11,769 nt of DNA from a virus (taxonomy: Duplodnaviria > Heunggongvirae > Uroviricota > Caudoviricetes), in the IMG/VR virus record IMGVR_UViG_2693429700_000006. One strand, given 5' to 3'. A program made the position numbers and the translations under genes. Of this stretch, positions 9,595-10,552 are shown one piece after another. The stretch's first letter is position 1. Every line of letters begins with the position of its first letter. The notes beneath the pieces are model-generated. The model did not search any database. It had not been told where the DNA came from and saw only the letters and a list, made by a program, of their open reading frames with translations.

Positions 9595-10354
9595 TAGCGA
9601 TAATTTTACTCATCATCCTTCACATTTGGCTCTGTAGACAGGGTGGTGATCACTTCTGGAGTAAATCCAGATTAAACATCTCATTGCTGATGCTTGATAT
9701 TGAGCATATGGCGCGCGGTAAGGGGCTGCGTTGAGATAAGAGCCAGTTCATTACAAAGCCTATCTACGGGTGGGCTTGATAATGAAACCGGAATTTATTC
9801 TGGGCAACCAGTTACGGCAGTACCGCGAAACAACCCAAGCCAGTAAGTGGGGAAATAACACTGGCAGCTACTGAAAGATGAACCCCCTGCCTTATGGCAA
9901 AAAAGATTCTTTGTGGTGGCGGACTGATGGAAAGACATCGGTTATTTCAGAGACCATTCAATGAGTGGTCTCGACAATGGCTTATACCCTACACGGGATA
10001 ACTTAACTGATATCCCTTTTAACGGATAAAGGTATTCAAGCCTGACACATCATGCGCTGTATCGTCGCCGTATTCCCGTATTAACAGAGACCGTAGCCCG
10101 ACGGGGAACTCCTTCTGCGAGAGTGTGCGGGAATAATCAAAAACGATGCACACCGGGTTTTTACCGCGTTTATGGTTCGCGGGTTTGTCCCTCATGCTCG
10201 CCAGTCCTGTGCGGGGGTGGAAGAAACAGGATACTCACACAGATTCTTGTGGGCACGATGCTATTCCTTTCTGGATTATCCCGATGCCATTCATGCAAGG
10301 CGCTGTATCAGACGTTCGTCATGGCTGTCAGGCTGACGGGTCCTCCCGGTGGGG

Positions 10355-10390
10355 TGGCCTGCCACGGGGCGGGAGCGGCGCGGAAAAAGG
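10355..10390. other. Putative cos region (cosN-like GC-rich core CACGGGGCGGGAGCGGCGCGG) upstream of the small terminase gene
   Basis: Position between the lysis cassette and a Nu1-like gene. Resembles the recalled lambda cos junction (ACGGGGCGGCGACCTCGCGG) and the downstream CGTCAT motif. Exact nick sites cannot be determined. Confidence 0.3.
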
Positions 10391-10552
10391 CTAGTTTTTG
10401 AAATTTCATTCGTCATCACCACTACTGTAATGCATTGATATTACATTGGTTTTATTTTTATGGTGTCGATTTTGATTGTTTTTTGTTCATCGCTAACACC
10501 GTTTGCCTAAAGTTGTTCGCAAGATGCATGTTTAAAACATTCTGGAGCGGGT

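Follow-up and report, generated by a model that had tools for sequence, protein, structure and literature searches.

A probable lambda-type cohesive-end site ahead of a DUF1441 small terminase gene, bordered by mosaic spacer DNA, in a defective Escherichia coli prophage

The cohesive-end sites (cos) of lambda-like phages follow a shared plan. The cosQ element is a 7 bp sequence that is highly conserved, indeed invariant, in these sites, the I2 segment is required for termination, and the natural variation in the cohesive ends described by Feiss and co-workers affects bp 7-12 while the flanking CG is kept (PMC4669245). The adjoining cosB element has been reported with the order R3-I1-R2-R1 in lambda, 21, phi80 and Gifsy-1 (PMC9026076), and the cos of mEp213 has been inferred as GGGCGGCGCGCT (PMC12315714). 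Here we analyse the interval between the lysis gene Rz and the small terminase gene (terS) in an 11,769-nucleotide stretch of Caudoviricetes DNA (IMG/VR record IMGVR_UViG_2693429700_000006), which we call the window. Positions ~10338-10552 very probably form a lambda-type cohesive-end site, composed of cosQ, cosN, an I2-like segment and cosB, ahead of terS and the large terminase gene (terL), of the Gifsy-2/mEp460 type, while the left part of the interval appears to be assembled from mosaic non-coding spacers. The site is of an already described kind, known from lambda-like phages of the Gifsy, mEp213 and cdtI types among others. With the cos of Gifsy-1 and Gifsy-2, mEp213/LLS and the cdtI type (the lambda-like group of Feiss) it has in common the cosQ/cosN/I2 core, a large terminase subunit (TerL) of the GpA type and the C-terminal domain of a DUF1441-type small terminase subunit (TerS) (PMC4669245, PMC12315714).

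A preliminary description of the window, made from its letters, had noted roughly 950 bp without a sizeable ORF between Rz and the small terminase, and within them a GC-rich core and then an AT-rich stretch. Between the end of Rz at 9594 and the start of terS at 10553 lies a gap of 958 bp in which the listing of open reading frames (ORFs) contains none of 100 aa or more, and GC content drops from 0.58 at 10200-10399 to 0.365 at 10400-10599, so the outline given there is correct on both counts. The elements that make up the putative site, including a core for integration host factor (IHF), are these:

10338..10344, + strand: cosQ-like heptamer GGGTCCT, identical to the lambda heptamer and in the same relative place; GGTnCT is conserved across DUF1441-terS loci
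10362..10383, + strand: putative cosN, placed by alignment with lambda, cdtI and Tritos and by record termini; the pattern is unique in the window
10379..10400, + strand: I2-like segment right of cosN; its sequence, CGCGGAAAAAGGCTAGTTTTTG, is aligned to CGCGGGTTTTCGCTATTTATG of the lambda I2 region
10401..10552, + strand: putative cosB, AT-rich, with an IHF core plus candidate TerS boxes, and the terS ribosome-binding site at ~10545

Lambda was compared as joined ends, and its cos aligns with the window in collinear matches at cosQ, cosN and the right flank. The lambda cosQ heptamer is matched within ACGGGTCCT (10336-10344) and is followed by CCGGTG in both sequences, with 22 bp from cosQ to the predicted top-strand nick in the window and 23 bp in lambda. 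The cosN reads CACG/GGGCGGGAGCGG/CGCGG, where CGCGG follows the 12-nt end in lambda also, and nicking of the top strand is predicted after 10366 and that of the bottom strand after 10378, which would give the 12-nt 5' cohesive end GGGCGGGAGCGG (10367-10378). Both nick positions are flanked by CG, as 10365-10380 reads CG/GGGCGGGAGCGG/CG. Compared with the lambda end GGGCGGCGACCT the left half is identical and differences occur only at positions 7, 8, 9, 11 and 12, which fits the reported pattern of variation at bp 7-12 (PMC4669245). If the region is a cos, the predicted left end of the genome, at the equivalent of 10367, is GGGCGGGAGCG(G/T) with a 12-nt 5' overhang. To the right of cosN, GCTAGTTTTTGAAATTT in the window is aligned to lambda GCTATTTATGAAAATTT, collinear with the cosQ and cosN matches. 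Taken as one composite pattern, GGGTCCT-N18-24-CGGGGCGG-N6-CGCGG has a single occurrence in the window (10338-10383) and is absent from all of 200 shuffles, and it is found again ahead of terS in relatives. The distance from the nick to the terS ATG is 187 bp, compared with 191 bp in lambda. Overall the similarity to lambda cos lies in the cosQ heptamer GGGTCCT, the order and spacing of the elements, the IHF core within an AT-rich cosB and the GpA-type TerL, whereas the five cohesive-end positions and the cosB sequence, which is unrelated, are different. No phage paper mentioning the exact cohesive-end string was found in the open literature.

The same core can be placed by comparison with other phages. 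Position 1 of the cdtI record and the junction of end and start of the linear Tritos record map to the base onto 10366/10367, and the end sequence of both, GGGCGGGAGCGT, is one base off that of the window. The mEp213 sequence is 87.5% identical to window 10337-10399. A genome-wide search with the TerS protein gave 66 loci from Escherichia, Citrobacter, Klebsiella, Proteus, Providencia, Serratia, Pasteurellaceae, Psychromonas and others, and the cos core lies ahead of the DUF1441-type terS in about 55 of these 66, from Enterobacterales to Pasteurellaceae and Psychromonas, at ~100-235 bp from terS where the distance was measured. The consensus of the loci is GGTnCTCC ... CCACGGGG-N10-CGCGG-N4-CGGCnnnTTTTT. 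The resemblance to lambda cosN that the preliminary description saw in the GC-rich core is thus borne out by the cosQ/cosN homology, by the cdtI and Tritos termini, and by the conservation of the core ahead of terS across genera. A further trace comes from the Ayreon record (MF807953.1), where a 150-bp chimeric insert at 2328-2477 falls exactly within the predicted overhang (window 10369/10379), with 72 bp of it taken from the coding part of terS (window 10886-10957); it is probably an assembly artefact arising at physical DNA ends.

Right of the core, a perfect IHF core, TAATGCATTGATA, is present at 10428-10440, a position counted as +62 from the predicted left end. A perfect IHF core (YAANNNNTTGATW) in the same orientation stands at +62 or +63 in 13 of 54 related loci but in 0.5% of shuffled sequences, and this conserved position backs the earlier suggestion that cosB and IHF sites would lie in the AT-rich stretch ahead of terS. 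Blocks conserved among close relatives, here phages with TerS identical over the first 50 residues, point to three candidate binding boxes for TerS:

10412-10423: candidate TerS box (GTCATCACCACT)
10459-10470: candidate TerS box, inverted
10492-10503: candidate TerS box

Together with the IHF core these boxes have a layout that may resemble the R3-I1-R2-R1 order (PMC9026076).

The putative site is followed by two terminase genes, which overlap at 11047:

10553..11047, + strand: terS, DUF1441 family, Gifsy-2/mEp460 type (Pfam PF07278, E 2.7e-41; phrog_141, terminase small subunit, E 7e-74)
11047..11685, + strand: 5' fragment of a GpA-type large terminase gene (Pfam PF05876, E 2.7e-46), a pseudogene in the annotation by PGAP, followed by the IS1203 transposase

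By both Pfam and PHROGs the second frame is the N-terminal ATPase part of a GpA-type large terminase. The first carries weak Pfam matches to helix-turn-helix (HTH) domains at TerS residues 3-33. The TerS proteins of cdtI (terS 185-724) and Tritos (terS 197-724) have the same C-terminal two thirds, the DUF1441 core, as the window TerS, but a different N-terminal domain, and at the DNA level cosQ, cosN and I2 are kept while the sequence diverges from ~+40 on. The two phages therefore differ from the window both in cosB and in the N-terminal domain of TerS, and the window copy differs further in that IS1203 has disrupted the terL of its prophage. It looks as though cosB and the TerS N-terminal domain change together, as would be predicted for a specificity pair of TerS and cosB, in a natural domain swap of the kind seen between lambda and phage 21. 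Such a difference would imply that the window has a different packaging specificity from cdtI and Tritos.

In the chromosome of E. coli strain Z1323CEC0019 (NZ_CP148401.1, reverse strand) the whole window has a 100% identical counterpart, which forms part of a defective lambdoid prophage. According to the record annotation the order of the prophage is integrase, early genes, DNA methylase, a lysis cassette (essD, a ydfR-like gene, lysozyme and Rz), a 50-aa hypothetical coding sequence, an unannotated stretch, the DUF1441 protein, a terL pseudogene, IS1203 and host genes. IS1203, an IS3-family element, interrupts terL after ~200 codons (region 11638-11769), and the head and tail genes are all missing. 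Because terL is cut and the head and tail genes are gone, the prophage is defective and can neither cut nor package its own cos. The cos copy in this prophage is a relic, and any activity of it would require a helper phage with matching specificity. A 1021-bp query (9560-10580) matches seven places in the same chromosome, so the strain contains several lambdoid prophages that have parts of the region in common and are possible helpers or recombination partners.

Several observations weigh against the assignment of a lambda-type cos. The defect of the prophage means that no function can be claimed for this copy. The spacer between cosQ and cosN is 1 bp shorter than that of lambda. An unbiased search for direct-inverted-direct triples of 10-mers, corresponding to R3, inverted R2 and R1, was equalled or bettered in 22 of 200 shuffles and so does not rise above chance, which is why the R boxes are kept as candidates. 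The window TerS has no similarity to lambda Nu1 by BLASTP or phmmer, and the same programs give none to solved structures. The sole link to Nu1 is an hhalign comparison with a profile of 29 TerS homologues (probability 60%, E 8.6e-5), collinear over 113 columns (residues 9-121 vs 2-137), which puts the N-terminal HTH and a 'GG..N..LY' wing motif in register; unlike Nu1, the window protein is of the DUF1441 family, and it is tied to Nu1 weakly and at the profile level. The support for virion DNA ending at this position is indirect, consisting of the cdtI and Tritos termini, which are deposited coordinates, and of the chimeric insert within the cosN of Ayreon. Finally, the mEp460 and Ayreon records begin at terS by convention and not at cos. 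Their ends (window 10527/10528) had been a candidate for cos ends and were rejected, as mEp460 opens at the annotated terS start codon and the authors of the Ayreon paper state that their genome was opened at terS by convention.

Could the cos-like sequence then be a chance or vestigial resemblance in a lineage that packages elsewhere, from a pac site or a different cos? Such an explanation can draw on the indirect nature of the evidence for the ends and on the R repeats not being significant. It is contradicted by the GpA-type TerL, which accompanies 5'-cos packaging (PMC12315714), by the presence of the core at a fixed distance from terS across bacterial families, and by record termini that coincide with it to the base, and we consider it extremely unlikely.

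With a lambda-type cos as the preferred reading, a course of events can be proposed for an intact relative, in which the steps after the late transcript follow the lambda paradigm. The late transcript would pass through the region into terS and terL. TerS would bind cosB through its N-terminal DNA-binding domain, assisted by an IHF bend at 10428-10440, and would set the GpA-type TerL on cosN. TerL would then nick the top strand after 10366 and the bottom strand after 10378 to yield 12-nt 5' ends of sequence GGGCGGGAGCGG, packaging would proceed rightward from terS, and at the next cos the combination of cosQ and cosN would trigger the terminating cut.

An indirect point in favour of the cos is that the window is strongly enriched in Chi sites (GCTGGTGG), which are found at 1262, 5282, 6447, 7261(-), 7267, 7606, 9015 and 11190. 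These are eight sites in 11.8 kb where 0.35 would be expected by chance, and seven of them are on the + strand. Seven lie left of cos, six of these on the top strand and within 9.1 kb of the predicted cos, and the top-strand orientation is the active one for RecBCD entering at the right DNA end that this cos would make. The same orientation of Chi has been described in Chi-rich lambdoid phages that lack Rec modules (PMC12315714).

The left two thirds of the gap lie where other lambdoid phages carry morons, among them bor and lambdap78 in lambda, ybcV and ybcW in DLP12, rha or kilA in P22 and HK620, and ORF80. Three segments are needed to describe it:

9747..9786, + strand: long imperfect hairpin at a mosaic junction (arms 9747-9760 and 9773-9786), seen in the inverted repeat, the junction alignment and the minimum free energy structure
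9812..10030, + strand: conserved non-coding segment of ~215 bp, 91-97% identical to HK97, HK620, P22 and SEN22, holding 28-aa and 35-aa frames and a hairpin at 9950-9972
9963..10231, no strand assigned: spacer segment as in mEp460-type phages, Kati and PhiR70_1

Set against its relatives, the interval comes out as a mosaic. The phages mEp460, Ayreon, HK620, PhiR70_1 and Kati all have the stretch 9400-9757, and 9749-10030 corresponds to a spacer that stands after kilA/hkbL in HK620, after rha in P22 and, in HK97, behind the gene after kilA-N. Within the latter, the 9812-10030 segment is found in 196 phage records and in over 110 distinct viral contigs, and its left context takes at least four forms; HK022 has it over part of its length, as seen in the tblastn list alone. 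In other phages the segment comes after genes of the rha/kilA type and usually runs directly into the ribosome-binding site and start codon (ATG) of a DUF2560 gene, a gene that the window lacks. In prophages of the mEp460 type the 205 bp at 9758-9962 are replaced by 63 bp that include a terminator-like hairpin. In Kati and PhiR70_1 the spacer 9963-10160 or 9963-10231 lies 3' of a minus-strand ybcV-like gene. Further right, 10053-10160 is 82% identical to lambda 46868-46974, the region between bor and lambdap78, and 10166-10366 is 78% identical to the last 200 bp of Tritos. Variants of the junction hairpin with other stems occupy the same type of junction in PhiR70_1 and in mEp460-type prophages. 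Such hairpins, at 9747-9786 in the window and in two other loci (L006, ~3235-3275, and L008, ~2565-2605), are flanked by CATTACAA ... GATAATG and are not followed by a U-tract, and the stems of the copies differ, being AAGCCTA/TGGGCTT as opposed to AAAGCCACTC/GAGTGGCTTT.

These correspondences raise the question of whether the interval consists mainly of pseudogenes, either decayed morons, as the preliminary description had proposed, or a truncated regulator of the XRE type left after deletions. Genes do stand at the corresponding places in other phages (kilA-N/hkbL in HK620, a 253-aa ORF and ybcV in PhiR70_1, ybcV in Kati, and bor with lambdap78 in lambda), and the 205-bp for 63-bp replacement separates the window from the mEp460-type prophages. 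A tblastx comparison with lambda, Tritos, cdtI, PhiR70_1, Kati, HK620, P22, HK97 and SEN22 gave matches in intergenic stretches only, and none to the coding parts of bor, lambdap78/ybcV, rha or kilA, which speaks against decayed morons. The window thus shares the genomic position and the homologous intergenic flanks of the moron region, but is without moron genes or recognisable fragments of their coding sequence. The remaining evidence comes from the short frames of the gap, listed here with their strands:

9582..9734, + strand: 50-aa ORF (ORF50), a hypothetical protein in the PGAP annotation
9770..9874, + strand: short ORF with a GTG start and an internal ATG at 9782 (MKPEFILGNQLRQYRE...)
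9894..10001, + strand: short ORF
10019..10195, - strand: 58-aa ORF
10146..10394, + strand: 82-aa ORF (ORF82), which runs across cosQ and cosN, matches phrog_17397 and is a hypothetical protein in mEp460 (mEp460_059)
10123..10401, + strand: 92-aa ORF

Two of these frames had been cited before, of which 9782..9874 exists as given and the other exists one base away from the 9895..10002 then reported; the remaining four had gone unmentioned, and some of them carry gene calls by other annotators. The product of 9782-9874 had been likened to a truncated N-terminus of an XRE-type HTH protein. It has no Pfam match at E<=1 and no PHROG match, and tblastn retrieves the same short frame (<=34 aa) with no longer homologue. 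Among 53 viral contigs its start codon yields 30 aa or fewer in 52 and reads through to 60 aa in one, and the frame is cut to 9 aa in 14 and frameshifted in 8 (22 of 53 together). With no family match and no longer homologue, and being so often cut or frameshifted, the XRE assignment is rejected. The ATG of the 28-aa and 35-aa frames is likewise lost in several contigs.

Neither ORF82 nor the 58-aa ORF of the minus strand is conserved as a frame, a point that also tells against pseudogenes. ORF82 is broken in Tritos and in two further loci (L021 and L022) by indels of 1-2 nt and stop codons, its substitutions are spread evenly across codon positions, and we judge it to be non-coding on this pattern. 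A coding sequence at this location in Ayreon is labelled 'putative late gene regulator', a function that we reject for ORF82 since the frames of relatives are broken and the Ayreon call spans the chimeric insert. The 58-aa ORF was rejected as a gene, its conservation ending at close relatives. The reading as pseudogenes is thus largely refuted already, and we regard it as very unlikely.

ORF50 is the only frame of the gap that looks as if it may be real, and it may encode a small membrane protein. It has a hydrophobic N-terminus, overlaps the Rz stop codon, is annotated by PGAP as WP_032353478.1 and matches phrog_11822, a family of unknown function, at E 7.6e-38. The frame is intact and without indels in all seven relatives that align over its full length and in the aligned part of SEN22 (q23-150), with 0-1 changes at second codon positions in each; in HK620 it is unannotated. 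Within Rz itself, 9347-9553 (+ strand) holds an embedded out-of-frame ORF with the look of an Rz1-type lipoprotein o-spanin, which PGAP leaves unannotated. The stretch 9595-10337 is a mosaic of non-coding spacers with one small, possibly real ORF and is not made of decayed genes, and in other lambdoid phages its spacers border the insertion places of morons (rha/kilA, ybcV, bor).

The conservation of the 9812-10030 segment allows another explanation, that together with the junction hairpin at 9747-9786 it is a functional RNA of lambdoid late transcripts, acting as a processing or stability element, a DUF2560 leader or a small RNA. The segment is widespread at 91-97% identity in varied left contexts, and its small ORFs are not conserved. 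The + strand of 9735-10040 folds at -101.8 kcal/mol (z = -5.9, with none of 100 shuffles as good), compared with z = -2.6 for the minus strand, and in a scan of the whole window 9701-10000 (+) ranks fourth of 230 windows, other intergenic stretches folding equally well or better. Folds of 300-nt windows that are no less unusual than that of the segment are seen at 3301-3600 on both strands (z -5.65/-4.07), 6501-6800 on the + strand (z -5.3) and 2001-2300 on the - strand (z -4.7), of which 6501-6800 covers the start of the DNA methylase gene and 70 bp upstream. In the hairpin at 9950-9972 the pair 9953/9969 is A-T in 41 sequences, G-T in 62 and G-C in 2, a polymorphism that is compatible with pairing in + strand RNA.

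Against a functional RNA, Rfam gives no match at the gathering threshold and noise alone at E<=10, a search for tRNA and tmRNA returned nothing, and no promoter-like or terminator-like sites were found on the + strand at 9400-10400. RNAalifold with 111 distinct homologues of 9806-10036 predicts 27 pairs, of which none is compensatory (covariation term +0.05), although this test is uninformative because all 27 pairs are essentially invariant and the alignment is too conserved. At 91-97% the identity does not exceed that of the coding modules next to the segment, and it may therefore stem from recent mosaic exchange and not from constraint. On this balance a functional RNA seems unlikely, and we rate as quite unlikely the more specific idea that the ~215 nt at 9812-10030, lying between variable junction hairpins, are an undescribed RNA element of late transcripts, such as a DUF2560 leader or an RNase III-type module for processing or stability, kept here without its downstream gene. 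Of the small RNA mentioned in the preliminary description, the + strand fold at z = -5.9 speaks in favour and the missing Rfam match, promoter and terminator speak against, which leaves it neither established nor excluded.

Taken together, the analysis places to the base the unannotated, probable cos of those prophages, very common in E. coli, that form the family with a DUF1441 TerS and a GpA-type TerL, which would help to orient and delimit prophage genomes. It exposes as spurious the coding sequences called over this site, mEp460_059 and the 'late gene regulator' of Ayreon, and would explain the assembly artefact in the Ayreon record. A cos with an intact terS in a defective prophage is relevant only as a possible packaging substrate for a helper phage. 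The current understanding of packaging is unaltered by these results, and within it the family would provide a further case in which the DNA-binding domain of TerS and cosB are exchanged jointly while cosQ and cosN stay constant, as between lambda and phage 21.

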